From assembly GCA_037141055.1 (NCBI GenBank), contig JBAXDH010000004.1, positions 2,443-66,442 on the forward strand: a stretch of 64,000 nt of DNA, written 5' to 3'. The notes below the pieces were generated by a model. It was not told the origin of the DNA and searched no databases. It worked only from the letters and a program-made list of their open reading frames with translations. This document shows, piece by piece, positions 4,966 to 64,000 of this stretch. The position numbers and the translations under genes are program-made. The DNA is from a bacterium (GTDB lineage Bacteria; Bacteroidota; Bacteroidia; Bacteroidales; FEN-979). How positions within the stretch are numbered: position 1 is the first letter of the stretch; the number at the start of each line of letters is the position of its first letter.

Positions 4966-7383
4966 ATGAAGATAATTACCATATTATCCGCAATCATTAT
5001 TGTGTGTGCTGCTGCCGTAAATGGCCAGCAAATAAAAGTACTCGACAAGTCAGACCTGCAGCCAATCAGCCAGGTCAGTATTTCCAATACCGGCAAAACG
5101 CTGATGGTTGTTACCGATAACGACGGGATGGCAGACCTCACCGGTTTTGGGAGTACCGACTCGATTTTTTTCAACCATGTTGCATTTCAGTCATTGCGCC
5201 TGCTGAAATCCGGAATTCCGGTGTCCGGAAATATCTATCTAACTGAAAACGTTATCAAACTCGATGAATTTGTGATCACCGGCAACAGGGCTGAAGAGAA
5301 AAGATCGGATCTGCCGTATAAAATTGAAGTAATCCAGGCAAAGGATATTTCATTCAAGAATCCGCAGAATTCGGCAATCATGCTTGAACAAAGCGGCAAC
5401 GTATTTGTGCAGACAAGCCAGTTGGGGGGAGGCAGCCCGGTTTTACGTGGTTTCGAAGCCAACAAGGTCCTGCTTGTGGTCGACGGCATCCGCATGAACA
5501 ATGCAATCTATCGTGCCGGCCATCTTCAGAATGCCATCACCGTTGACCCGTTTGGCCTGGCATCTACCGAAATCCTTTACGGACCGGGTTCCACGCTGTA
5601 CGGCAGCGATGCCCTCGGTGGTGTGATCAATTTCATTACCAAAGACCCGGAACTTTCTACTACCGGTAAAACAGAAGTCCATGGCAGCATCCTTGGAAGA
5701 TTTTCCTCGGCAAACACCGAAAAAACAGGCGGCATCAATCTGAACCTTGGATGGAAAAAGCTGGCCGTCCTGCTGAATTTGTCGCACAGCGATTTTGGCG
5801 ATCTTCGCGAGGGGAAAGTCCGTAACCCGGCTTATGGCACTTTTGGCGAGCGTATTTATTATGCTGGAACCGCAGACGGGAAAGATGTAACCCTTGTGAA
5901 TGACAAGTCCTGGATTCAGAAAGGTTCTGCATATTCCCAGTATAATTTTCTGGGAAAAGTGCTTTTTCAGCCGGGCGTCCACAGCAAGTACATTTTAAAT
6001 GTTCAATACACAAACTCCGGCAACATCCCGCGGTATGACCGGCTCACCGAAATGCAGAACGACAGCACCATGACCTATGCCGAATGGTACTACGGGCCGC
6101 AAACCAGGTTCCTTGGATCGCTGAAGGCCGAATACAGCCTAAACGGGGTGATATTCGACCATGCTTCCGTCATCGTCGGGTACCAGTATGTAAAGGAGGA
6201 CAGGATTCAGAGAAGTTTTGCCAGTTCGAAGAAAAAATTCAATCTCGAAACGGTTGGCGTGTTTTCTGTGAATGCCGACTTTGACAAAAGACTCGCTTCA
6301 CGGGATGAGTTGCACTACGGAGTTGAACTTCAATACAATAGTGTCGGTTCAACCGCGCACAACCAGAATATTGCAACAGGCGAAATCACACAAGACCGTG
6401 CGACACGGTTTCCCGATAAAAAGGCAGCCATGACGTACCTTTCAGCATATCTCTCGAATAACTGGAAGATAAACGACATTCTGGCATTTTCACAGGGTTT
6501 ACGGTTCAATTATGTAACGCTGAATGCAGCCTATTCGGATACGATGGTTAAAATTGCCTCCATCCCTTTCGACCCGAATATCGTCCAGAATAATGCAGCG
6601 TTAAACGGCTATCTTGGACTCGTGGCAACTCCAGAACACGACTGGAAGTTTTCACTGGTGGGTTCCTCCGGTTTCAGGGCTCCGAACATGGATGACCTTA
6701 CCAAAATCAACGTGGTGGAAGCCCATACCATCGTCGTTCCGAATCCTGATCTCAAGCCGGAATTTTCATATAACCTGGAAGCTACTGTAGCAAAAACAAT
6801 TCTTGGAAAGGTCCGGATTGAAGGAACCGGTTTTTACAACTGGCTTAAAAATGCACAGGTCATCCGGCCGTTTGCATACAATGGCCAGGACTCCATCACC
6901 ATGGACGGGGTCAGATACCAGACGCTGGCACCGGTCAATACAGGAAGTGCATTTATCTGCGGGTTCCAGGGAAGTATACTTGCACAGGTTACACGTTCAT
7001 TTTCAATTCTGAGCAACCTGACCTATACGTACGGCTATGATGAAATTGCAAAATTACCGCTCGACCATATTCCGCCGGTGTTTGGGATGACATCGTTCCG
7101 CCTGGAGGTTAAAAAATTCAAGGGGGACTTTTATGTGATGTACAATGGCTGGAAACGCATGAGCCAGTACAGCAACAGTGGTGAGGACAATGAGCAGTAC
7201 GCCACTCCTGAAGGCATGCCTTCGTGGTATACGCTCAACCTGAAATTGAGCTACCAGATCGAACGACATGTCAATGTTGAACTTGGAATGGAAAATATCT
7301 TTGATGAGAACTACAGGAAATTTTCATCAGGCATCAGCAGCCCCGGACGCAACATCATTGTCGCGCTGCGTGCCAATCTCTAA
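4966..7383 (+). CDS. TonB-dependent receptor
   Basis: 805 aa. Signal peptide, N-terminal carboxypeptidase-regulatory-like domain, plug motif GGSPVLRGFEANKVLLVVDGIRMNNAIYRAGHLQN and a long beta-barrel region. Confidence 0.9.
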   Translation: MKIITILSAIIIVCAAAVNGQQIKVLDKSDLQPISQVSISNTGKTLMVVTDNDGMADLTGFGSTDSIFFNHVAFQSLRLLKSGIPVSGNIYLTENVIKLDEFVITGNRAEEKRSDLPYKIEVIQAKDISFKNPQNSAIMLEQSGNVFVQTSQLGGGSPVLRGFEANKVLLVVDGIRMNNAIYRAGHLQNAITVDPFGLASTEILYGPGSTLYGSDALGGVINFITKDPELSTTGKTEVHGSILGRFSSANTEKTGGINLNLGWKKLAVLLNLSHSDFGDLREGKVRNPAYGTFGERIYYAGTADGKDVTLVNDKSWIQKGSAYSQYNFLGKVLFQPGVHSKYILNVQYTNSGNIPRYDRLTEMQNDSTMTYAEWYYGPQTRFLGSLKAEYSLNGVIFDHASVIVGYQYVKEDRIQRSFASSKKKFNLETVGVFSVNADFDKRLASRDELHYGVELQYNSVGSTAHNQNIATGEITQDRATRFPDKKAAMTYLSAYLSNNWKINDILAFSQGLRFNYVTLNAAYSDTMVKIASIPFDPNIVQNNAALNGYLGLVATPEHDWKFSLVGSSGFRAPNMDDLTKINVVEAHTIVVPNPDLKPEFSYNLEATVAKTILGKVRIEGTGFYNWLKNAQVIRPFAYNGQDSITMDGVRYQTLAPVNTGSAFICGFQGSILAQVTRSFSILSNLTYTYGYDEIAKLPLDHIPPVFGMTSFRLEVKKFKGDFYVMYNGWKRMSQYSNSGEDNEQYATPEGMPSWYTLNLKLSYQIERHVNVELGMENIFDENYRKFSSGISSPGRNIIVALRANL

Positions 7384-17780: not shown

Positions 17781-18788
17781 CTAATCAAGCCCCAGGACAC
17801 CTGATGACCTGCCAAGAATGTTGTTTTTATAAAGCTTCTGATAGATCAGGAATCCGATAAATGGATTTACAAACGGCGCCAGTTTCAGAACCACTTTAAG
17901 ACGTGTTGTAACAGAAGGATCTGCCCTGACAAACTCTTCAACAGCAGCATACCTGGAATTGATATCTGTTTTTACTTCAGGCAAATTCTTTATGGCTTTC
18001 CGGTTAAGATAAATGAAAAGCAGAATCCACTGTGCATATTTTCTGGAAGCCAGGGAATGTAAACCGGTCAGCCCTTTTTCTTTAAAAAAACGGATCCGCT
18101 CCTCCATTGCATCGGTATAATGAAGTTTCTTCAGGTTGAAGCCGCTGCGAATGATGCTGTCGGGAGATTGGTAGTAGTAATAGTACTTTTTGTCAAATAC
18201 AACTATCTTGCCTGATAAATAGAACAGTTTGTATGTGGTAAACTCATCTTCGTGAATTTTTGCTTTCGGGAACCGGATTGAATCAAACAAATGTTTTCGG
18301 TACAGTTTATCCCAGGCAACAACATAATCGACATTGTATCGGGTGTAAATCAATTCTAACGCTTCCAGGTTATTGATGACCTTTTCGTTGTCGGCACCAG
18401 GATCAATAAATGTATCCTCCGTCACAGCCCTGTAACTGCATTGGGCGATGTCGGCGTCATGTTTTTGTATTCGGTCATAAAGGTCCCGGAACATATCCGG
18501 GTGAATAAAATCATCGCTGTCAACAAAACCGATGTAATCTCCTGTGGCGATGTCAATCCCTGCATTCCTGGCATCGGACAACCCTCCGTTGGATTGGTGA
18601 ATCACCTTTACCCGATGATCAATGCTTGCATACTCGTCACTGATAAGTCCCGAATTATCCGGGGAACCATCGTCAACCAGGATGATCTCGAGGTTTTGGT
18701 AGGTTTGATTTATGATCGAATCAACACACCGGTTCAGGTATTTTTCAACCTTGTAGATTGGTACGATGACGCTAATCTTATTTTCCAT
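17781..18788 (-). CDS. Glycosyltransferase family 2
   Basis: ISVIVPIYKVEKYLNRCVDSIINQTYQNLEIILVDDGSPDNSG and DSDD motifs. Confidence 0.9.
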   Translation of the reverse strand: MENKISVIVPIYKVEKYLNRCVDSIINQTYQNLEIILVDDGSPDNSGLISDEYASIDHRVKVIHQSNGGLSDARNAGIDIATGDYIGFVDSDDFIHPDMFRDLYDRIQKHDADIAQCSYRAVTEDTFIDPGADNEKVINNLEALELIYTRYNVDYVVAWDKLYRKHLFDSIRFPKAKIHEDEFTTYKLFYLSGKIVVFDKKYYYYYQSPDSIIRSGFNLKKLHYTDAMEERIRFFKEKGLTGLHSLASRKYAQWILLFIYLNRKAIKNLPEVKTDINSRYAAVEEFVRADPSVTTRLKVVLKLAPFVNPFIGFLIYQKLYKNNILGRSSGVLGLD

Positions 18789-36909: not shown

Positions 36910-39153
36910 ATGACTCCTGAAGAAACCAATGAGAACATGGAGCTGAATGCTGAGACCAATGTTGAACAAACTGCAAGTGCTGAAACTGAAGCAACGATTA
37001 CCGAAGAAGCTGTGATCGAAACGGAAGCTGCAATTGTCGAAGAGGCTGTGATGGAAACAGAAGCTGCAATCGTCGAAGAAGCTGTGATGGAAACAGAAGC
37101 TGCAATCGCCGAAGAGGCAGTGATGGAAACGGAAGCTGCAATCGCCGAAGAGGCTGTTGCTGCCGAAGAAACTGCCATCATCGAAGAGGCGCACATCGAA
37201 GCTGAAGCTGCAGTTGAAGCAGAAGCAAAGCCAGAACCCGTTGCCGAACCCGTAGTGGAGGCACCTGCAAGACCAGCCAGGAAAACATATGTTGCACCTG
37301 TTGCCCCTGCTGATTTTGACTGGGATGCCATCGGCAAGAAACATGAAATTTATTCCAGTGAAGAACGTACGAAACTGGAAGATGCCTACGATCAAACCCT
37401 TCGTGCCATCCAGGACCATGAAGTGATCGAAGGAACCGTGGTCACCATGACCAACCGCGAAGTCATCGTAAACATCGGCTTCAAAAGCGACGGTGTGATC
37501 CAGATGAACGAATTCCGCTATAATCCTGAGTTGAAAATCGGTGACAAGGTTGAAGTTTACATCGAGAACCAGGAAGATACCAGCGGCCAGTTGCTGTTAT
37601 CACACAAAAAAGCACGCATCCTGAAATCATGGGAGCGCATCAACGATGCCTATGAAAAGCAGGAAATTATCAAAGGGTATGTTAAATCCCGTACAAAAGG
37701 CGGTCTGATCGTGGATATCTTCGGTATCGAAGCATTCCTCCCGGGATCACAGATAGATGTGAAACCCATACGCGATTACGACGTGTTTGTTGACAAAGTA
37801 ATGGAATTCAAGGTTGTGAAGATCAACCACGAATACAAGAACGTCGTTGTTTCGCACAAAGCCCTGATCGAAGACGAACTCGAAGCCCAGAAGGCAGAGA
37901 TCATCAAGAGACTTGAAAAGGGACAGATCCTCGAAGGTACGGTCAAGAACATCACCAGCTATGGTGTATTTGTTGACCTTGGCGGCGTTGACGGCCTGAT
38001 TCACATCACCGATCTCAGCTGGGGACGTATCAACCACCCTGAAGAGATTGTGAAACTTGATCAGAAAATCAAAGTTGTCATCCTCGATTTCGATGAAAAC
38101 AAAAAACGTATTGCCTTAGGTCTCAAGCAGCTGACCCCGCATCCATGGGATTCACTGAGCCAGGATCTGAAGATCGGCGATAAAGTAAAAGGTAAAGTGG
38201 TTGTCATCGCCGATTACGGTGCATTTGTTGAAATCACCACCGGCGTTGAAGGTCTCATTCACGTTTCCGAAATGTCATGGTCGCAGCACCTGCGCACCGC
38301 CCACGATTTCCTTAAGGTAGGTCAGGAAGTTGAAGCCGTCATCCTCACACTCGACCGCGATGAGCGGAAAATGTCGATGGGGATCAAGCAGCTGATTCCG
38401 GATCCATGGGCCAACATCAGGGAAAAATATCCGCTCCGCTCCAAACATACCGCAACCGTTCGCAACTTTACCAACTTCGGTATTTTTGTTGAACTGGAAG
38501 AGGGTGTCGACGGACTGATCCACATCTCAGACCTCAGCTGGTCGAAAAAAATCAAGCACCCTGCCGAATTCACCAAAATCGGTGAGAGCATCGATGTAAT
38601 GGTACTTGATGTTGATGTCGAAAACCGCCGCCTGAGCCTCGGTCACAAACAACTCGAAGAAAATCCATGGGATGTGTTCGAGAATGTGTTCGCAGTAGGA
38701 TCATTGCACCTCGGTACAATCGTCAGCCTGAACGACAAGGGAGCTATCATCGCCCTTCCGTACGGCGTTGAAGGATTTGCACCGCTCCGCCATCTTGGCA
38801 AGGAAGACAACAGCATGGCCCGTGAAGAGGAAGCCATGGATTTCAAGGTGATCGAATTTTCGAAAGAAAATAAGAAAATCATCCTGAGCCATAGCAAAAT
38901 CCACCAGGATGCTGCCAATGCAGACAAGAACAAGGAAGCCAAGACCGGTCTGAAAAAGGAAAGCGATACCAAAAAAGCGGTTAAAAAACTCAAGGATAAC
39001 CTCGAGAAGACAACCCTTGGCGATATCGATGCACTTGCCAACCTGAAAGCTGACATGGTAAAGGCCGAAAATCTGGCCCGTGATGCCAAGTCTGCGAAAG
39101 ACGAGGCAACACCAGAAGTTGCTGAAGAAAGCGAGGAAACAGTCACAGAATAA
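36910..39153 (+). CDS. rpsA: 30S ribosomal protein S1 with an extended acidic repeat N-terminus
   Basis: Six S1 domains (e.g. GTVKNITSYGVFVDLGGVDGLIHITDLSW). A DFDWDAI motif follows about 135 aa of Glu/Ala-rich sequence. Confidence 0.9.
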   Translation: MTPEETNENMELNAETNVEQTASAETEATITEEAVIETEAAIVEEAVMETEAAIVEEAVMETEAAIAEEAVMETEAAIAEEAVAAEETAIIEEAHIEAEAAVEAEAKPEPVAEPVVEAPARPARKTYVAPVAPADFDWDAIGKKHEIYSSEERTKLEDAYDQTLRAIQDHEVIEGTVVTMTNREVIVNIGFKSDGVIQMNEFRYNPELKIGDKVEVYIENQEDTSGQLLLSHKKARILKSWERINDAYEKQEIIKGYVKSRTKGGLIVDIFGIEAFLPGSQIDVKPIRDYDVFVDKVMEFKVVKINHEYKNVVVSHKALIEDELEAQKAEIIKRLEKGQILEGTVKNITSYGVFVDLGGVDGLIHITDLSWGRINHPEEIVKLDQKIKVVILDFDENKKRIALGLKQLTPHPWDSLSQDLKIGDKVKGKVVVIADYGAFVEITTGVEGLIHVSEMSWSQHLRTAHDFLKVGQEVEAVILTLDRDERKMSMGIKQLIPDPWANIREKYPLRSKHTATVRNFTNFGIFVELEEGVDGLIHISDLSWSKKIKHPAEFTKIGESIDVMVLDVDVENRRLSLGHKQLEENPWDVFENVFAVGSLHLGTIVSLNDKGAIIALPYGVEGFAPLRHLGKEDNSMAREEEAMDFKVIEFSKENKKIILSHSKIHQDAANADKNKEAKTGLKKESDTKKAVKKLKDNLEKTTLGDIDALANLKADMVKAENLARDAKSAKDEATPEVAEESEETVTE
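37003..37182 (+). repeat. 36-nt in-frame tandem repeat inside rpsA: 4 good copies plus 1 degenerate
   Basis: Units start at 37003, 37039, 37075, 37111 and 37147 (gaagaRgctgtgatggaaacRgaagctgcaatcgYc). They encode EEAVMETEAAI(V/A). Confidence 0.9.
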
Positions 39154-45322: not shown

Positions 45323-45871
45323 CTACTTTAGTCTGTCCCTGAACGGTTCAAAGGTCATGAAATCCGCATGATGAACCACAAATGCTTCGGTTGTCCGTTT
45401 AACCATGTCACCTTCGCCTGCATGTGTGGCAATGATGTGGCAGACTTCAGCCGGTACGCCACATTGTTCAGCCAGTGAAACACCGGAGAACGGGTGCCGG
45501 AGGTATTTTCCGTACCTTCCCTGGAAGGATTTGCCGCTGGCATCTAATTCATATTCCAGCAGTTTGCCGACATCTGCCAGGATAGCCCCGGCAATCAGGA
45601 CGTCCATTTTCACAGGAAGATCCTCCTTGAAAAATTCGTTCATTTTGGTACCGGCATCCCGGGCAACATGAACCACGCACCGTTTGTGGGCCATAAAGGA
45701 GACCTTCATGTCGGGACCGGCAAGCAGGGTAAATGGAATTTTATTCAGGTCTTCAGGGGTTAAAACGCTTCTTTCGAGCGCAAGTTCCCACGTTTTTGCA
45801 ATTTTTTCGCGGAGTTCGGGATCTTCAATCCACATCAGTTCCGGCCAGAGGGTGATAATTTCTTGGGTCAT
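45323..45871 (-). CDS. HD-superfamily-like protein with a non-canonical metal motif
   Basis: The ATG at 45871 (MTQEIITLW) is preferred because the listed 5' end is a translated octamer repeat. His-rich helices are present, but ILADVGK replaces the usual HD doublet. Confidence 0.55.
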   Translation of the reverse strand: MTQEIITLWPELMWIEDPELREKIAKTWELALERSVLTPEDLNKIPFTLLAGPDMKVSFMAHKRCVVHVARDAGTKMNEFFKEDLPVKMDVLIAGAILADVGKLLEYELDASGKSFQGRYGKYLRHPFSGVSLAEQCGVPAEVCHIIATHAGEGDMVKRTTEAFVVHHADFMTFEPFRDRLK

Positions 45872-45890
45872 ACTTTCCGTTTTTGTGAAG

Positions 45891-46080
45891 GGTGACAGGG
45901 TGACAAAGTAACAAAGTGACAAGGTGACAAAGTAACAAGGTGACAAGGTGACAAAGTGACAAAGTGACAGGGTGACAGGGTGACAAAGTGATAAGGTGAC
46001 AGAGTGACAAAGTGATAAGGTGATAAAGTTCGTTTTACCTTGTTACCCTGTTACCCTGTTACCATATTTCCCTGTCACCC
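45891..46080. repeat. 17 tandem 8-nt units (GGTGACAA-type) followed by an inverted arm of 3-5 units
   Basis: 45891-46026 splits exactly into 17 octamers (ggtgacag, ggtgacaa, agtaacaa and so on). 46039-46080 reads cttgttac cctgttac cctgttac .. cctgtcac. Confidence 0.95.
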
Positions 46081-56436: not shown

Positions 56437-59211
56437 ATGGACTATCGAACCAAAACCAGGGAAGAACTTGCAACGGAACTTCAGGAAGTACACAAAGAAC
56501 TGGATTCATTAAAAGTTTCAAAGGGACAAAATATCACAGGGAGCCTTCCTGAGGAAGAACCTTTAACGGTAAGCAAGGAAATTTTCCGGTCAATATTTGA
56601 AAATAATTCAGCAGCAATGGCTTTTATCGAACCGGATACAACCATTTCAATGGTCAATGACGAATATTGTAATCTAAGCGGGTACACCAAAGAGGAAGTC
56701 ATCGGGATAAGCTGGACTCAACAAATTCCGCCTCAGGACCTTGAACGGTTAAAAGAATATAACCGCCGCAGGCTGATAAACCCAAAGGATGCCCCTGATA
56801 AATACGAGTTTACTTTCTGTCGAAAAAATGGTGAAATAAGGCATTCGATGATGTCAGTCACAATGTTAAGCAATCAAAAAATAATAGCATCATTTGTTGA
56901 TATTACCGAACGTAAGGAGGCGGAAGAAAAATTTGTGAAGAGCGAAGCCCAGCTTGCAAATGCACTTGATATTGCTAAGCTGGGTCCCTGGGAATATGAT
57001 GTGGCAACGGACACTTTTACATTCAACGATCATTTCTACAATATTTTTCGTACGACGGTTGAACGGGAGGGTGGATATACGATGACTTCCGCTCAATATA
57101 CCCGTCGTTTCGTTGACCCGGATGATATGCTTCAGGTTGGTGATGAAACCAGAAAGGCAATTGAAACGACAGACCCCAACTTCAGCCGTGATATTGAGCA
57201 TCGCATTATCTATGCTGACGGTGAGACCGGATACATAAACGTTCACTTCTTTATCCTCAAAGATGCACAGGGTAACACTGTCAAGACTTATGGAGTTATC
57301 CAGGATATTACAGAGCGAAAAAAAGCTCAGGAATCTCTAAAGGATAGTGAACAGCGCTACCGCAACCTTTTCGATCAGGCAAATGAAGGGCTCATTCTGC
57401 TGTCAAAGGATGGTAAATTAGTTGAGGTCAATCAAGCATTCGCTGAGATGCACGGTTACACTGTTGAAGAAATGAAGAATCTCGACATCCGGGAATTGGA
57501 TGTTCTCAGGGAAGGGGCATTTGAAGCTCGTGCCGAATTAATGCAGCGCATTGATGCCGGGGAGGTTGCCCGTTTTGAGGTCGAGCATTATCATAAAGAT
57601 GGTCATATTGTTACGTTCAGCGATTCGGCGAGTCTGATAGAAATTGGCGGCCAGCAGTACTATCTGGCTTTCCATCAGGACATTACTGAGCGTAAGCGGA
57701 TGGAAGCATCTTTGAAGGAGAGCGAGGAAAAATACCGCAACCTGTTCGAAAATGTTCAGGATGTTTTTTACCAAATCGACCTTGCCGGGATTATTCAGGA
57801 TATAAGCCCGTCCATTAAGCATTTTTCCGAATTTAGCAGGGATGAAATACTAGGCACCAATGTGGCAGACCTTTATTATAATCCAGATGACAGGGGAGCT
57901 TTTTTAAAAGCAATATATCAGCAAGGTGAAATAAGGGATTATGAATTATTCATAAAAACAAAGAGTGGCGATAAAAAAGTGGTTTCGTTGAATGCCAATT
58001 TAGTTTTCGATGCCGACGGTAAACCAAATCATATAGATGGGGCACTAAGGGATATCACGGATCGTAAGCTTATAGAAGACAAGATTCGTGAAAAAGAGAT
58101 CCAGTTCAGAAAGCTTTCGTCAAATTTACCTGACCTGATTTATCAATTTTCAAGAAGACTTGATGGAACGTACTGCGTTCCTATCGCATCAGAAGGTATA
58201 AAAAATATTTTTGGCTGTTCCCCGGAAGATGTTCTTGAAGACTTTGCGCCGATTGGCAGGGTAATTTTCCCTGAAGACGCAGAAAGAGTAATTAACGACA
58301 TCGAATACTCTGCAAAGCATTTGACATACTTTACCTGTGAGTTTCGGGTGCAAATACCCGGGAAACCTATCCAATGGATATTTTCCAGATCAACTCCTGA
58401 AAAATTGGCAGATGGCAGTATAACCTGGTATGGCTTCAATGCAGATATCACGGAGCTAAAGCAAAATGAAGAAGAGATCCTTGAACTCAACAGGGATCTG
58501 GAACTCCGGGTAAAACAACGCACATCAGAACTGGAAGCAGCCAACAAAGAACTGGAAGCTTTTTCTTATTCTGTTTCACACGATCTGAAAACGCCTTTAA
58601 GGCATATCCGCTCCTTTATCGGCCTGTTCCTCGAAAATAAATCAAAAGACCTGTCTGAAGAAGACCTTAGATACCTTGACATTATTTCTTCTTCTGCCTC
58701 GAATATGGATAAATTGATTGATGCGATACTTTCTTTCTCCAGGCTGAATGGAATCGAATTACGAAACACAAGGATCCGTTCATCGGAGATTGTTCAGCAG
58801 GTCATTAAGTTCTTTGATCCTGAAATTCAAAACAGGAAGATCACCTTGAATGTTGAAACGCTGCCTGAAATAAAAGGAGATGAAGATTTAATCCGGCAGG
58901 TTTGGATCAACCTGATCTCCAATGCCATCAAATATACAATGAAAAAGCCGGAAGCGATAATAGAGATCGGCAGCAGTTCAACTGACAAAGAGATTACTTT
59001 TTACATTAAAGATAACGGAGCCGGCTTTAATGTGAAATATGCAGAAAAGCTATTCGGTGTATTTCAACGACTTCACAAACCCCGCGATTTTGAAGGAATC
59101 GGAATCGGATTGGCCAATGTGAACCGGATCATTACACGGCACGGAGGCCATTGCCGGGCCGAAGGAGAAGTGGACAAAGGGGCAACTTTTTACTTTAGCC
59201 TGCCGAAATGA
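56437..59211 (+). CDS. Soluble multi-PAS sensor histidine kinase
   Basis: The ATG at 56437 (MDYRTKTREEL) is preferred. At least 5 PAS/PAC units each end in D(I/V)TERK. H-box SHDLKTPLRHI and HATPase motifs (DNGAGF, GIGIGLA) are present. No TM helix and no receiver. Confidence 0.9.
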   Translation: MDYRTKTREELATELQEVHKELDSLKVSKGQNITGSLPEEEPLTVSKEIFRSIFENNSAAMAFIEPDTTISMVNDEYCNLSGYTKEEVIGISWTQQIPPQDLERLKEYNRRRLINPKDAPDKYEFTFCRKNGEIRHSMMSVTMLSNQKIIASFVDITERKEAEEKFVKSEAQLANALDIAKLGPWEYDVATDTFTFNDHFYNIFRTTVEREGGYTMTSAQYTRRFVDPDDMLQVGDETRKAIETTDPNFSRDIEHRIIYADGETGYINVHFFILKDAQGNTVKTYGVIQDITERKKAQESLKDSEQRYRNLFDQANEGLILLSKDGKLVEVNQAFAEMHGYTVEEMKNLDIRELDVLREGAFEARAELMQRIDAGEVARFEVEHYHKDGHIVTFSDSASLIEIGGQQYYLAFHQDITERKRMEASLKESEEKYRNLFENVQDVFYQIDLAGIIQDISPSIKHFSEFSRDEILGTNVADLYYNPDDRGAFLKAIYQQGEIRDYELFIKTKSGDKKVVSLNANLVFDADGKPNHIDGALRDITDRKLIEDKIREKEIQFRKLSSNLPDLIYQFSRRLDGTYCVPIASEGIKNIFGCSPEDVLEDFAPIGRVIFPEDAERVINDIEYSAKHLTYFTCEFRVQIPGKPIQWIFSRSTPEKLADGSITWYGFNADITELKQNEEEILELNRDLELRVKQRTSELEAANKELEAFSYSVSHDLKTPLRHIRSFIGLFLENKSKDLSEEDLRYLDIISSSASNMDKLIDAILSFSRLNGIELRNTRIRSSEIVQQVIKFFDPEIQNRKITLNVETLPEIKGDEDLIRQVWINLISNAIKYTMKKPEAIIEIGSSSTDKEITFYIKDNGAGFNVKYAEKLFGVFQRLHKPRDFEGIGIGLANVNRIITRHGGHCRAEGEVDKGATFYFSLPK

Positions 59212-59228
59212 AATGGAAAAGTCGCTCC

Positions 59229-59348
59229 AAACTGATCACATTGCGCCGATCTTGATTGACCGCCTTAACCTTTTAACAATCAATGTACAAGAGGTGTCAA
59301 TGAGAACCGGCCATGGATGGTCAACTTCACCGGACTGTCCATGACCTT
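59229..59348 (+). other. Conserved non-coding element, copy 1
   Basis: Gapless alignment to 61775-61894 at offset 2546. I hand-counted 88 of 110 identical positions in the core (59231-59340). Confidence 0.85.
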
Positions 59349-59467
59349 TACTTCATATCTGAACAAGTTCAGGGAAATTGGAAAAGCCGGCCCATCTGGC
59401 CAGCTTCCGCTATCTAAAGACAGAATTATATCTTCAAACTACTTTTGTTTTTATGCAGGTGAAAGTA

Positions 59468-59475
59468 TAATTTTG
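59468..59475 (+). promoter_or_regulatory. -7 box (TAatTTTG) for the TPR-LuxR gene
   Basis: Matches TAnnTTTG, about 65 nt before the ATG at 59540 and about 120 nt downstream of conserved element copy 1. Confidence 0.45.
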
Positions 59476-59539
59476 CTTCGTTGCCGGTACGCCCGGGTTA
59501 TCTGGGAACCAGGCTCAATTTTACCCATGTCGTTTACTG

Positions 59540-61366
59540 ATGAAATTCTGCAAACTCCTCGTCCTGTTAATGTTTTTATCTCTTTCACCGGGGATCGGTT
59601 ACGCTCAAACCATCAATCCTGACACCATTGCATCAGACCTTTTCCGTAAGTTCGGGGAAAACCTTTCCGGGAATTCGGATTCAATGAATCTGACGGTAAA
59701 CCGGATGATCCGCAAGGTATCGGCCGACTACCCCGGGAAAACAGGGGAAGTGCTTTTCCAGACCGGTAAATTACTCTATAAGCGTAACTCCAACGATGCC
59801 GCATTAATGTGTTTCAGGGCGGCATTGCCCCTGATGGAAGCAGGTAAAGATCCGGAGAAATACATATCGTGCGCGCTGGCCATGGCCAATGCTTTCTACA
59901 AAGCGATGAAAGCGGATTCTGCCGGTTTTTATGCCGATCTGGCCAGCAGAATTGCAACTAAGTTTAAGATCAACCGGTTCGATGGCGACATTTACAACAA
60001 CAAGGCCCGTGTTGCCGACCTGGTTGGTCAGCGATTGCTGGCAATTGAGTGGTACCTGAAGGCCGCCGACTTCCAACGGGAGAACAAGGACACCGCCAGG
60101 CTGGGAGTGATACTGGGCAACATCGGAGCGGTACACATCAACCTTGAAAATTACAGTGAAGCCCTGAAGTGCCTCCATGAATCGGAAATTTACAACGAAC
60201 ACCAGGTTAATAAAGCCGCACTGAACGACACCTACACCAACCTGGCTGTCGCCTATAAAGGAGAGGGGAATTTTCGGGAAGCTGTCAGGTATTATTTAAA
60301 GTCGATCAGCCTTTCAAAAAAAATGCAAAACGATTTCCAGCTGGCCAGGGCATATATGAACCTTGCCTCTGCGTATATAAACGAAAAGAAATACAGGGAA
60401 GCGGAGGCATACATCGACAGCAGCAAATTTCTATGCGAGAAAAACAACATCCCGGTGGGTCTGCTTTATAATAAAATAAACCAGGGACAGGTGATGCTGG
60501 AAACGGGAAGGGTCAGCACAGGACTTTCATTGCTGCTGGATGTTGAAAAAGATATGGCCGGCTACAAAATGCCCGGGCTCCTGAGTGAACTCTGGTCAAT
60601 TATTTCATATGGCTACGAAAAGGACAGACAATACCGGCCTGCATTTGATTACTACAAGAGATCCATTGCACTGAAGGACAGTATTGCCGGAAGCGAGACC
60701 AGGCGGCATGTATTTGAACTGCAAACCCGGTACGAAAGTGAACGCTCAGCCCGGCAGATCGACCAGTTGCAGGACAATGTCGGGAAACAAAAAATCAGGA
60801 ATAATTTCGTCATGGTGGCCCTTGGAATGTCGGTCGTCATAATCTTACTGCTCGGGGCATTACTGATCTTTTACAGGCGAACCCAGTCGTACAGGCATCG
60901 GCTGGCCCGCGAAGAAAATGAAAAACTGCGGCTCAGCATGGATATCAAAGACCAGGAGCTGGTGAGCAAAGCCATCAACCTGGCTAAAATAAATGAAATC
61001 GTCCTCGATGTCAGTGATCAGCTTAAGCAGATATTGCCCGGTTTGACAAAGGAGAAAACCAATTTATTGCAACAACTGCTCCGCAACCTCGAGAGCAGCC
61101 TGCCATCGGAGGCATGGAAGGAGTTTGAGACCCGTTTTGAACAGGTACACACGGGGTTTTATGACAAGCTTTTATCCCTTTATCCCGACCTGACCCCCGC
61201 TGAACTGAAAGTTTGCGGTTTCCTGCGGCTCAACCTCACCACCAAGGACATCGCCCTGCTTACGAATCGAGGAATCGGCACAATTGACCATGCCCGCAGT
61301 TCGATCCGCAGGAAAATGAACCTTGACAACGATGCCAACCTGACCTCCTGCCTCCTTTCGTTGTAA
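59540..61366 (+). CDS. Transmembrane one-component regulator: signal peptide, TPR repeats, TM helix, LuxR-type HTH
   Basis: The TPR-like region spans about residues 60-400. TM helix VMVALGMSVVIILLLGALLIFY. C-terminal LTPAELKVCGFLRLNLTTKDIALLTNRGIGTIDHARSSIRRKM. Confidence 0.85.
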   Translation: MKFCKLLVLLMFLSLSPGIGYAQTINPDTIASDLFRKFGENLSGNSDSMNLTVNRMIRKVSADYPGKTGEVLFQTGKLLYKRNSNDAALMCFRAALPLMEAGKDPEKYISCALAMANAFYKAMKADSAGFYADLASRIATKFKINRFDGDIYNNKARVADLVGQRLLAIEWYLKAADFQRENKDTARLGVILGNIGAVHINLENYSEALKCLHESEIYNEHQVNKAALNDTYTNLAVAYKGEGNFREAVRYYLKSISLSKKMQNDFQLARAYMNLASAYINEKKYREAEAYIDSSKFLCEKNNIPVGLLYNKINQGQVMLETGRVSTGLSLLLDVEKDMAGYKMPGLLSELWSIISYGYEKDRQYRPAFDYYKRSIALKDSIAGSETRRHVFELQTRYESERSARQIDQLQDNVGKQKIRNNFVMVALGMSVVIILLLGALLIFYRRTQSYRHRLAREENEKLRLSMDIKDQELVSKAINLAKINEIVLDVSDQLKQILPGLTKEKTNLLQQLLRNLESSLPSEAWKEFETRFEQVHTGFYDKLLSLYPDLTPAELKVCGFLRLNLTTKDIALLTNRGIGTIDHARSSIRRKMNLDNDANLTSCLLSL

Positions 61367-61604
61367 GTTTTCCAGATCACATCCCGTCAGAATAATCCAG
61401 ATCAGCAGTTTTTGCTGTCAAGGATTCCCATTTCTGCCGTTAAACCGCTTCATTTCCTCACACACCTGGCATGTTGATCGTTAGCAGCCACGCGACAGAT
61501 AAATGACAGATGGATTTTTTTACACCGGCAGATAAATGACAGTTGCTTTATTTGGAAGCGTGTAAATATTGGTTGTTTTTTGTTTTTTATTTAGCAAGAA
61601 CGAT

Positions 61605-61781
61605 ATGAATGACACTGCCAATGATAACTGCTCCCGGGAAATGGAGGAACACAACCAGATGCTGAAAGAAAAATCGAAGGCCTATAAAAAGCTGGCCGAA
61701 GCATTGAATGACAATTACAAGAGCCAATTGCCAAAACCCGGCATCAAGATGAAGGCACCACGGAAAATCCGGCCCACCTGA
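61605..61781 (+). CDS. Small charged hypothetical protein (58 aa)
   Basis: An ATG at 61605 inside the listed ORF 61569..61781. Helical and Lys/Glu-rich. Coding status is unproven. Confidence 0.3.
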   Translation: MNDTANDNCSREMEEHNQMLKEKSKAYKKLAEALNDNYKSQLPKPGIKMKAPRKIRPT

Positions 61782-61894
61782 CCACCTTCTGCCGGTTTTG
61801 ACTGACCACCTTAAACTTTTAACAATCAATGTATAAGAGGGGTCTGTGAGAGTCAGCCAGGGATGGTCAACTCCACCCGCCTATCCAATAACTT
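61775..61894 (+). other. Conserved non-coding element, copy 2
   Basis: See copy 1. It ends 14 nt before the ATG of the fibre-like gene. Confidence 0.85.
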
Positions 61895-61908
61895 ATAAAT
61901 CGAATATT

Positions 61909-64000
61909 ATGAAACAAAAACTTTTACTTTTCGCAACAGCATTGTTTTTAAGCGTATTAAGTTACGCACAGGTCACAACCGGCGTAGCCATCAACGCTAC
62001 GGGAGCCGATGCCGCCGCCAGTGCCATCCTCGATGTGAGCAGCATCACCAAAGGGGCGCTTGTGCCGCGCATGACCGCCGTGCAACGCGGTGCCATCGTT
62101 TCGCCCGCCACAGGGCTGTTGGTTTTCCAAACCGATGCACCCGAAGGTTTTTATTATTACAATACGGCTTCCTCCTGGGTTTACCTGACAAATTCAGCCG
62201 GAGTGCTGGCCATCGCAAATGGAGGAACAGGTTCGTCATCCCAGAATTTTGTGGATTTAACCACCGACCAAACCGTTGCCGGAAATAAAATTTTATCGGG
62301 AAATACCACTCTAGGCGGCACTTTGGGCGTAACGGGAGTTGCCACTTTAACGGCAGCACCGGTACTTTCGAGCACCACTGCTTCGCAGGCATTGTTTACC
62401 AATGCGGGCAAGAATGTCGTTTCCAATCCTGTAACAGGAACCGGAAATGTTGTGATGAGCACTTCGCCAACGCTGGTAACCCCAACCCTCGGCGTTGCTT
62501 CCGCCACTTCAATTAACGGATTAACGCCTGCTTCTCAAACCACTGGTTTTACAATTGCAGGTGGCACTACTCCCAAAACATTGACCGTGCCATTGGATGC
62601 CTCGGTGAGCGGCACAAACACCGGCGATAATGCCGTGAATTCACTGTATAGCGGAGTGGTTACCAATGCCACCCATACCGGCGATGCCGAAGGCGCAACC
62701 GCACTCACTGTAAAAAAGATAAACGGGGTAGCGCTCTCCGGGCTTGCAAGCGGTATTTTGAAGAATACCACCGCTACCGGTGTCCCCTCTGTTGCGGTTG
62801 ACGGAACCGATTATTTATCCCCAACCACCGGCTGGAGCCTTACCGGTAACTCAGGCACAACTGCCGGAACCAACTTTATCGGCACAACCGATGATAAGGC
62901 GCTTGTCTTTAAAGTTAATAGCCAAAAAGCAGGGCTGGTAAGCACAGGCACCAATACTTCTTTTGGCTATCAGACATTAAATGTAAATATTGGTGTTTAT
63001 AACACTTCCAATGGGTATCAGGCATTATTATCCAACACATCGGGTAACGGAAACACTGCCATTGGTTCTCAAGCATTATACTCGAACATAACCGGCTATA
63101 ATAACACTGCCAATGGTTATAATGCATTATACTCGAACATAAGCCATAATAATACTGCAAATGGTGCTTCTGCATTATACTCGAACACAAGCGGCCATAA
63201 TAATACTGCAAATGGTGCTTCTGCATTATACTTGAACATAAGCGGCCAATATAACACTGCAAATGGTTATCATGCAGGAACATATATAACCGGTGGAGCT
63301 GCTCCAAATGCAACCAGTTCCAATTCTGTGTATCTGGGCGCTCAAACAAAAGCTTTTGCGGATGCCCAAACAAACGAAATAGTGATTGGCTATAATGCAA
63401 TCGGCGCAGGTAGCAATACTGTTACCCTGGGCAATACCTCAATAACAAGCACGGTTTTGCGTGGCAATGTGCAACATTACGGCACTACTTCGGGGTATGT
63501 TGGTTTGCAGTCGCCTGCAACCGTTGCAACGCCCTATTCGCTTACCCTGCCAACTGCAGCCCCGGCAAGCGACGGCCAGGTGCTGAGCGCAACAACGGCC
63601 GGCGTGATGAGCTGGGCAAGTGCCGGAAGCGGCTGGGGCTTAACCGGAAACATAGTCACCGCAACTGACTTTATTGGAACAACAAATGATCAACCCCTTG
63701 TTTTTAAAGTAAACAGCCAAAATGCCGGACTGGTAAGCTCAGGCACCAATACATCTTTTGGGTATCAGACATTAAATGCCATCACATCGGGTACCAATAA
63801 CACTGCCAATGGTTATAAGGCATTATGGTCCAACACACAAGGTTCTTATAATAATGCCAATGGTTATCAGGCATTATACTCAAACACATTGGGTGTAGAA
63901 AACAATGCCTATGGTTATCAGGCATTATACTCAAACACAATGGGTGGCTATAACACTGCCAATGGTTCTGCCGCATTAAAGTCCAACACAACGGGCGAAT
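61909..64000 (+). CDS. Secreted fibre/adhesin-like repeat protein, 3' end beyond the window (absent from the ORF track)
   Basis: I hand-translated 697 codons from the ATG at 61909 and found no stop. Signal peptide MKQKLLLFATALFLSVLSYAQ. IANGGTGSSS motif, and repeated NTANGxxALYSNTxG units resembling YadA-head/Hep_Hag repeats. Confidence 0.8.
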   Translation, partial: MKQKLLLFATALFLSVLSYAQVTTGVAINATGADAAASAILDVSSITKGALVPRMTAVQRGAIVSPATGLLVFQTDAPEGFYYYNTASSWVYLTNSAGVLAIANGGTGSSSQNFVDLTTDQTVAGNKILSGNTTLGGTLGVTGVATLTAAPVLSSTTASQALFTNAGKNVVSNPVTGTGNVVMSTSPTLVTPTLGVASATSINGLTPASQTTGFTIAGGTTPKTLTVPLDASVSGTNTGDNAVNSLYSGVVTNATHTGDAEGATALTVKKINGVALSGLASGILKNTTATGVPSVAVDGTDYLSPTTGWSLTGNSGTTAGTNFIGTTDDKALVFKVNSQKAGLVSTGTNTSFGYQTLNVNIGVYNTSNGYQALLSNTSGNGNTAIGSQALYSNITGYNNTANGYNALYSNISHNNTANGASALYSNTSGHNNTANGASALYLNISGQYNTANGYHAGTYITGGAAPNATSSNSVYLGAQTKAFADAQTNEIVIGYNAIGAGSNTVTLGNTSITSTVLRGNVQHYGTTSGYVGLQSPATVATPYSLTLPTAAPASDGQVLSATTAGVMSWASAGSGWGLTGNIVTATDFIGTTNDQPLVFKVNSQNAGLVSSGTNTSFGYQTLNAITSGTNNTANGYKALWSNTQGSYNNANGYQALYSNTLGVENNAYGYQALYSNTMGGYNTANGSAALKSNTTGE

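Follow-up and report, generated by a model that had tools for sequence, protein, structure and literature searches.

A putative interspersed palindromic repeat at gene ends beside a TPR-LuxR regulator gene in uncultured Bacteroidales

Introduction

The ERIC (IRU) elements of the Enterobacteria and the Correia (NEMIS) elements of Neisseria are imperfect palindromes that do not encode protein, measure about 100-155 bp and have inverted termini. Both are located between genes, near gene ends, are co-transcribed with the flanking genes, and vary in presence at orthologous sites. The Correia elements contain an IHF site and cause the duplication of a TA target. To our knowledge, small palindromic repeats are well studied in the Proteobacteria and Neisseria but have hardly been catalogued in the Bacteroidota. 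REPINs and REP-BIME sequences, which RAYT transposases (Y1, IS200-like) mobilize, are described as having inverted arms that form a long hairpin, as lacking target-site duplications, as occurring in clusters, and as belonging to old families with diverged copies (PMC3116915, PMC3337134). According to a further report, one end of a REP is marked by GTAG or CGTC (PMC3733652). MITEs, which derive from IS elements and are non-autonomous, have been reported in Porphyromonas gingivalis (PMC2575886, PMC5771137).

Here, we analyze a duplicated non-coding sequence in a 64,000-nt stretch of DNA, hereafter the window, from an uncultured member of the Bacteroidales. A sequence-only reading of the window had located one copy between a PAS kinase gene and a gene for a TPR-LuxR regulator and suggested that the two copies could be an operator bound by this regulator, a cis-acting leader RNA or peptide, or a small repeat family.

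Results

The sequences at 59229-59348 and 61775-61894 are identical at 94 of 120 positions when aligned at a constant offset of 2546 nt, and no other offset in the window gives more than 52 of 120. A repeat search of the window recovered them as a direct pair, 59218-59348 and 61764-61894, of 131 nt with 77% identity and a spacing of 2546 nt. The offset given in the sequence-only reading holds, but the claimed absence of gaps does not apply to the full unit, in which a 1-nt indel near the 5′ end separates the two copies. The earlier hand count of 88 of 110 identical positions in the core agrees with a recount of 87-89, and the 32-nt stretch said to contain only two differences is identical at 30 of 32 positions. 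When up to three mismatches were allowed, this 32-nt core was found at two places only in the window (0 expected from shuffles), at 59263-59294 (CCTTAACCTTTTAACAATCAATGTACAAGAGG) and at 61809-61840, both on the + strand. The core is the most conserved part of the element and forms the apical region of a palindrome that spans all of it, with identities between the two copies of 32/49 in the 5′ arm, 30/32 in the center, and 36/47 in the 3′ arm.

The limits of the repeat unit were set by an alignment of three copies from the source genome and a listing of their ends. The unit is about 128 nt long, begins with T/C-GGAAAA and ends with TCCA. The two full-length copies, here called E1 (59214-59341; nhmmer E=4e-42, covariance model (CM) R1 130 bits) and E2 (61761-61887; nhmmer, CM 140 bits), were identified as direct repeats, belong to subfamily A as defined below, and are both located on the + strand, as previously noted. 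The CM finds exactly two full copies inside the window. The 5′ terminal inverted repeat of E1 (TGGAAAAGTCGC; 59214-59225, +) pairs with the 3′ terminal inverted repeat (CGGACTGTCCA; 59330-59341, +) in the outer helices of the RNAalifold consensus, and the listing of ends also shows both arms. The inverted repeat TTGAyTG-N18-CAATCAA of the sequence-only reading is exact in E1 (TTGATTG) and has one mismatch in E2 (TTGACTG). The mini-ORF described there, which reads MYKRCQ in E1 and MYKRGL in E2, each followed by a stop, and the GGATGGTCAAC box are likewise present in both copies.

The same reading regarded the two copies as the sole shared intergenic sequence, which they are not. A truncated copy that consists of the 5′ arm only (GGAAAAGCCGGCCCATCTGGCCAGCTTCCGC; 59374-59410, +) is located 32 nt downstream of E1. 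It matches positions 6-42 of the nhmmer model, gives a weak CM hit, and is 91% identical over 32 nt to a copy in another genome (locus L001). Furthermore, a third full copy in the source genome, E3, was identified with both nhmmer and the CM just outside the window, 5.9 kb downstream of E2 (18121-18256 in locus L037, corresponding to about 67690-67825 in window numbering). Elsewhere in the window there is a tandem array with an 8-nt period at 45868-46037, in which GTGACAAR or GTAACAAR units occur about 20 times, and a set of five tandem 36-nt repeats at 36982-37197 that, if in frame, would encode an acidic ETEAAIVEEAVM-like peptide repeat.

The element was also considered as a coding region, but the sole long frame, a 43-codon ORF in copy 1, is interrupted by a stop in copy 2, and the codon phases are hit evenly by the 30 substitutions between E1 and E2. 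A DGR template and variable repeat pair, which was considered because of the Lcl_C/FISUMP-type neighbors, was rejected on inspection of the alignment, since the copies lie between genes and their differences show no specificity for adenine. Finally, the copies within the source genome are 78-81% identical and equally similar copies are present in other genomes, with identities between genomes in the same range (72-93%), and a recent local duplication was therefore rejected.

The search of other genomes for the core, proposed as a check in the sequence-only reading, was performed by scanning an exact 18-mer from the core against one genome per species, covering 185,579 species. Five of the 28 matches were true homologs, all in Bacteroidales MAGs, and the other 21 loci were chance matches. 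The true homologs are located in three MAGs other than the source genome, one of which contains L001 and L015, while the others contain L017 and L021, the latter with two copies 1.9 kb apart. A profile built from the copies found with the 18-mer (nhmmer) and a CM were then used to seek further copies. The family is present in at least four uncultured freshwater Bacteroidales genomes, including the source, and is divided into two subfamilies, A and B, that are about 55-60% identical to each other. Subfamily B is represented in L017 by three full copies and in L021 by a single truncated one, and its center differs from that of subfamily A, in which the 32-nt center is nearly invariant in all copies from four genomes. 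The source genome contains three full copies and one partial copy in the approximately 71 kb examined, and L017 contains four full copies and one partial copy in 8 kb. The partial copy in L017 abuts a full one (2205-2265 and 2263-2398), oppositely oriented pairs of the form B(-)A(+) are present in both L017 and L021, and the copy in L015 is located at the end of its retrieved locus. No match to the element was obtained in viral contigs, PLSDB plasmids or GenBank phages, and its open reverse-frame peptide gave no hits against 5.8 billion predicted proteins. A weak palindromic match to the model of the element (CM E about 1e-3, both strands) was observed downstream of a Fic ortholog in L052 (11603-11736) and L053 (2615-2748, -), which may represent a distant third subfamily or a chance match.

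E1 starts 3 nt after the stop codon (59209-59211) of a gene for a 989-aa PAS/HisKA/HATPase kinase. The gene downstream of E1, with its start at 59540, encodes a TPR protein of 608 aa whose C-terminal part has a LuxR-like helix-turn-helix; the latter was not scored at E<=0.001 in a Pfam search of the protein. A small ORF (61606-61781) takes its last 6-7 codons and its stop from the first 20 nt or so of E2. The end of E2 is 21 nt before the start, at 61909, of a gene for a large exported protein whose N-terminal domain is of the PTL_trimer type. As claimed, both copies are followed by + strand genes, and the proteins that start at 59540 and 61909 have signal-peptide-like N-termini. Internal duplications of 795-801 nt, as well as repeats with a 51-nt period and a NTANGYQALYSNT-type motif, are present in the exported PTL_trimer gene and in the Lcl_C gene that follows it (62864-63991, and 13295-16410 in L037). 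E3 directly follows the stop codon of a 494-aa gene, and the Peptidase_C10/T9SS gene on its other side is convergent. E1 and E3 therefore bracket an 8.6-kb regulator-exported-protein module.

Overall, the genes that neighbor the copies are not related to each other. Copies in L001 and L021 have Fic genes as neighbors, and a Gp49/HTH toxin-antitoxin-like (HigBA-like) pair is also a neighbor in L021. A diphthamide-synthase-like ORF in L001 runs 13 codons into the element, past its Pfam domain, and ends with EKPAHLTTFRRF and a stop. Together with the small ORF in the window, at least two ORFs thereby have their C-termini altered by the element. The copies in L017 are located next to an IPTL-CTERM protein and three tandem PTL/Lcl_C-type exported proteins, and the copy in L015 next to a convergent zinc-ribbon gene. 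Of the subfamily-A copies, the seven for which the upstream gene is known all run in the direction of that gene and begin -3 to +40 nt from its stop codon, while two of the four subfamily-B copies are antisense to both neighbors.

To compare orthologous loci, we used TPR-LuxR homologs with contigs from the source species (three contigs) and from five other species, with amino acid identities of 76-61%. The order of the regulator, the small ORF and a very large exported protein is kept in the five orthologous loci, none of which contains the element (nhmmer E<0.01, CM E<1). In L040, which is the closest relative, about 95 nt of unrelated sequence separate the small ORF from the gene for the exported protein. 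Similarly, Fic orthologs with 86-92% identity have no element upstream, although one is present in L001 and L021, and the homology with these two loci begins only about 135 nt upstream of Fic. The presence and absence of the element at two independent kinds of site argue for insertion rather than for an ancestral regulatory site. A clean empty site with near-identical flanks was found among neither the TPR-LuxR nor the Fic orthologs, so that insertion is deduced from diverged orthologs, which counts against the repeat interpretation. The region of about 135 nt upstream of the Fic genes is itself conserved with or without the element and contains repeated TGCAATTATAAA and TTTGCAGA motifs (L021, oriented, about 5020-5155; L052, 9866-10000; L056, 9934-10000). 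Unrelated repeats flank the TPR-LuxR gene in two of the loci that lack the element: a short repeat family starting with AAAAAAGATGTAAACGCAGAGAAACGCGGAGG occurs twice in L040 (45-210), and a repeat that runs from GGTTAAACCACATTCC to CCCCCCGAATCGGGGGG occurs twice in L044 (7144-7507). The spacers that flank the TPR-LuxR gene may be general landing sites for repeats.

The small ORF at 61606-61781 (+) encodes about 58 amino acids (MNDTANDN...), has no Pfam family, and is located between the TPR-LuxR and exported-protein genes. It is kept in position and sequence in the relatives, where the called products are 58-106 aa long, and its 73-aa homolog at the equivalent position in L040 identifies it, by sequence comparison, as a real ORF. 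A tandem motif, GACAGATAAATGACAG / GGCAGATAAATGACAG, is located 60-110 nt upstream of this ORF, at 61494-61509 and 61527-61542. It can be written GACAG-N6-TGACAG, and its layout, GACAGATAAATGACAG followed after about 17 nt by (G)GCAGATAAATGACAG, is found in the window, L040 and L047. In L049, the retrieved stretch contains one GGCAGGTTAATGACAG unit and a second GACAG that starts at its end, and L044 contains a GACAGGTTTTTGACAG variant. The tandem GACAGATAAATGACAG is a better candidate than the repeat for the operator or promoter region of the regulator. Two exact matches to TAnnTTTG, the Bacteroidetes-type -7 box consensus as in Bacteroides promoters, are located between E1 and the start of the TPR-LuxR gene, at 59440-59447 (TACTTTTG) and 59468-59475 (TAATTTTG), both on the + strand. 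These boxes are likely the promoter -7 elements of the TPR-LuxR gene, and since they are located downstream of E1, E1 is placed outside the likely 5′ UTR of the regulator gene.

The RNAalifold consensus of nine copies is a single nested hairpin over the whole unit that closes on the conserved center and pairs the termini, TGACCA with TGGTCA, GCCGRT with ATCGGC, and GAC with GTC. The repeat is thus built from inverted termini, two TGACC/GGTCA box pairs, one GCCG/CGGC box pair and the 32-nt center. The inverted termini are TGGAAAAGCCGG / CCGGCCTGTCCA in subfamily A and TATTGGAAAAACCG / CGTTTTTCCCAATA (14 nt, 86% complementary) in subfamily B, and the 3′ terminal arms differ between the subfamilies. 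Standard pairs account for 87.5% of the pair cells, compared with 26-43% when the partners are slid, and the palindrome is therefore real. Consistently, the model of the element matches its own reverse strand.

The covariation check suggested earlier did not favor a conserved RNA fold. Pairing was no better than with shuffled partners (87.0% paired, with 133 of 500 shuffles as high as the observed value), and the covariation score of 0.118 compares with 0.103 for the shuffles, of which 44 of 500 were as high, in a comparison of only nine sequences that is underpowered. With 11 sequences, likewise underpowered, a double change was seen in five of 19 pairs and many pairs were broken. The RNAalifold covariation term is positive. 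In both subfamilies the paired boxes are retained at the level of sequence, and a substitution disrupts a pair about as often as it preserves one. The MFE z-scores are -2.3 and -0.8 on the + strand and -1.2 and +0.2 on the - strand. The comparison with Rfam 15 gave no match to either copy at the gathering score, and none over 59150-62000 even at E<=10. The sole match in the window at the gathering level is a cobalamin riboswitch (RF00174; 39976-40179, +; 102 bits).

Sequence signals were searched for in the 11 copies. The attC consensus RYYYAAC / GTTRRRY and the IHF consensus, the latter also in the center, had no match, TAnnTTTG was not found on either strand, and GTAG/CTAC or CGTC/GACG was absent from 10 of the 11 copies, with one internal CGTC in the remaining copy (L017B3). 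A sigma-70-type match at 61798 in E2 was rejected as a promoter as it is within shuffle expectation. No + strand intrinsic terminator was identified inside E1 or E2 in a scan of 59100-62000 with a consensus that may not fit this phylum. The mini-ORF, MYKR(C/G)x plus a stop, is kept in five of the seven subfamily-A copies and has lost its stop in L021b and L017A, and at this position in subfamily B two copies have no ATG and two have a different short reading.

Discussion

A duplicated, conserved non-coding element beside a regulator gene invites a regulatory interpretation, while the comparison with other genomes points to a lineage-restricted interspersed repeat. We consider it fairly probable, from the sequence comparisons, that E1 and E2 are copies of an interspersed, non-autonomous palindromic repeat of a MITE/REPIN/ERIC-like kind that is co-transcribed at gene ends. 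This conclusion is based on a small palindromic unit that is non-coding and has inverted termini, on the existence of subfamilies and of copies that are truncated or adjacent, on unrelated neighbors, ORFs that read into the element and its absence from orthologous sites, and on a divergence within the genome that equals that between genomes. The small repeat family, one of the suggestions in the sequence-only reading, is supported by these features and by the several copies per genome, their two orientations, and their variable presence at orthologous sites. Besides the lack of a clean empty site, several observations were counted against this interpretation. No transposase, Y1/RAYT or integrase gene was found in the approximately 95 kb examined, and a tblastn search with the Y1_Tnp protein of L044 gave no match in the window, L037, L001, L015, L017 and L021 (about 95 kb). 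No shared or duplicated sequence of two or more nucleotides, as expected for a target-site duplication, is present at the flanks of eight full copies. The full copies in the source genome are clustered, with three in 8.7 kb of the 71 kb examined, and the nine loci obtained by scanning JGI metagenome contigs with AACAATCAATGTAYAAGAG were all chance matches. The MFE z-scores of -2.3 and -0.8 indicate a weak RNA hairpin. Finally, the center is more conserved than the termini, which is the reverse of most MITEs, and this high conservation may partly be an ascertainment effect, as copies were found via the central 18-mer.

The nearly invariant center is the main reason why a functional interpretation stays, in which it would be a determinant of protein binding, of recombination or of an RNA loop. 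An RNA module that acts in cis and is selected by the host, such as a 3′-UTR or intercistronic hairpin, an unconventional terminator, an attenuator or a processing site, would exist to control the read-through or stability of the flanking genes, with spread being secondary. It would account for the co-orientation of all seven subfamily-A copies with the upstream gene at -3 to +40 nt from its stop, for a center that is nearly invariant in four genomes in which the neighboring spacers cannot be aligned, and for the possible mutually exclusive pairings of TTGACCACC with either GGTC box and of GCCG with either CGGC. However, we regard it as unlikely, given that covariation does not exceed that of shuffles (87.5% paired, compared with 87.0%), the covariation term of alifold is positive, the z-scores are weak, Rfam has no match even at E<=10, two of four subfamily-B copies are antisense to both neighbors, and the element is absent at orthologous sites of otherwise conserved operons. 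The results from Rfam, covariation and folding also argue against the suggested cis-acting leader RNA, as does the location of E1 upstream of both TAnnTTTG boxes of the regulator gene, and a leader peptide is not supported, given the loss of the mini-ORF in two of seven subfamily-A copies and its lack of retention in subfamily B. We give little credence to a multi-copy family of genes for trans-acting small RNAs with the 32-nt apical region as the seed. Such a family is suggested by the several paralogous copies per genome and by a highly conserved center that is predicted to be mostly single-stranded, but no copy contains a TAnnTTTG box on either strand, the flanks lack conservation, no + strand terminator was found, copies overlap the ends of coding regions, and the center of subfamily B is different.

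It is very unlikely that the element is a hairpin-forming DNA recombination site, attC-like or resembling a single-stranded XerCD substrate, that borders exchangeable modules with genes for exported proteins, Fic and toxin-antitoxin systems. Its layout recalls attC in the box pairs TGACCA/TGGTCA and GCCGRT/ATCGGC, with a mostly unpaired spacer of 5-6 nt per arm, and in the large terminal structure. The copies are also co-oriented, abut stop codons and flank cargo that is typical of cassettes (a toxin-antitoxin pair and Fic), and E1 and E3 bracket the whole 8.6-kb module. The RYYYAAC / GTTRRRY consensus is nevertheless present in none of the 11 copies, no integrase or recombinase was found among the called genes within 10 kb on either side, one "cassette" would span 5.9 kb with three genes, and the subfamily-B copies occur in both orientations. 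Moreover, the gene order across E1, E2 and E3 is kept in relatives that lack the element, and the genes between the copies are therefore not independent cassettes. There is in our judgment only a slight chance that the element is, rather than selfish DNA, an integron-like or XerCD-like, hairpin-forming recombination or processing site that has a non-canonical sequence, is used by an uncharacterized recombinase and defines exchangeable modules; these would be the regulator-exported-protein genes between E1 and E3 in the source genome and Fic and toxin-antitoxin genes elsewhere, and the 32-nt center would be the determinant for protein recognition. Least credible, and close to dismissal, is the suggested operator of the adjacent TPR-LuxR regulator, with autoregulation at E1 and target control at E2. 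E1 is located about 100-230 nt upstream of the candidate promoters of the regulator, E2 is directly upstream of the exported-protein gene, and the element contains inverted half-sites. The element is however absent from all five orthologous regulator loci, four loci that carry it (L001, L015, L017 and L021) have no TPR-LuxR homolog, E3 lies between convergent genes, and the sequence that is conserved with the regulator is instead the tandem GACAG-N6-TGACAG upstream of the small ORF.

Under the interspersed repeat interpretation, copies would arrive by insertion of a non-autonomous element that is mobilized by an enzyme acting in trans without duplication of the target, or alternatively spread by recombination, and they would not be retained as a regulatory site of the TPR-LuxR locus. 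The shared direction of all subfamily-A copies and their upstream genes makes it probable that these copies are transcribed, either as 3′ tails or as spacers between cistrons. They would likely have the effect of REP/BIME, ERIC and Correia elements, in which a long imperfect hairpin acts on the flanking mRNAs and may influence their 3′-end formation, processing or stability. E1 could in this way partly insulate the kinase transcript from the TPR-LuxR gene, and E2 would separate the small ORF from the exported-protein gene by a hairpin. Two explanations are suggested by the orientation bias and by the location at stop codons, namely that the copies are tolerated or selected as transcribed 3′ hairpins, or that insertion is strand-specific, as is known for elements that move through single-stranded DNA. 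The invariant center, the lack of target duplication and of a REP tag, and the strong orientation bias indicate that the family could point to an uncharacterized mobilizing enzyme or to a host hairpin at mRNA 3′ ends. For the annotation of the locus, the comparison implies that its conserved cis-motif lies elsewhere, in the tandem GACAGATAAATGACAG upstream of the small ORF. The rewriting of C-termini and the hairpin inside an operon for exported surface proteins could both affect expression.

Among the known systems, the Bacteroidales element resembles attC sites, such as the Vibrio cholerae repeats, in that these are imperfect palindromes of about 60-140 nt that follow or overlap the upstream stop codon, have a single orientation and contain two paired boxes with an unpaired spacer. 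It differs from them in the lack of the R′′/R′ consensus, in that no IntI was found nearby, and in that the genes between the copies form a conserved operon, rather than cassettes, in relatives without the element. The similarity to REPINs consists of two inverted arms, a long imperfect hairpin of about 100 nt or more, the lack of target-site duplication, clustered and adjacent copies, and an old family with diverged copies. However, all 11 copies lack a terminal GTAG/CGTC tag, the approximately 95 kb examined yielded no RAYT, and conservation is highest in the center of the Bacteroidales element but in the REP arms of REPINs. With MITEs, the element shares a short non-coding unit of about 128 nt, terminal inverted repeats in both subfamilies, multiple copies, subfamilies and truncated copies. 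It differs in the lack of target-site duplication and in termini that are less conserved than the center, and no parent IS with matching ends was found in the examined DNA. Because strict membership among the MITEs, REPINs and attC sites fails on the features tested, the element is classed here only as a new family within this broad kind. Compared by description with ERIC and Correia elements, to which no relation in sequence is expected, it differs in phylum and in a copy number that is apparently much lower, and from Correia elements also in the lack of target duplication and IHF consensus, but it is similar to both in size, palindrome, inverted termini, position at gene ends and variable presence. 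The repeat is thus a previously undescribed family that, in this comparison by description with the known kinds, is ordinary as a kind.
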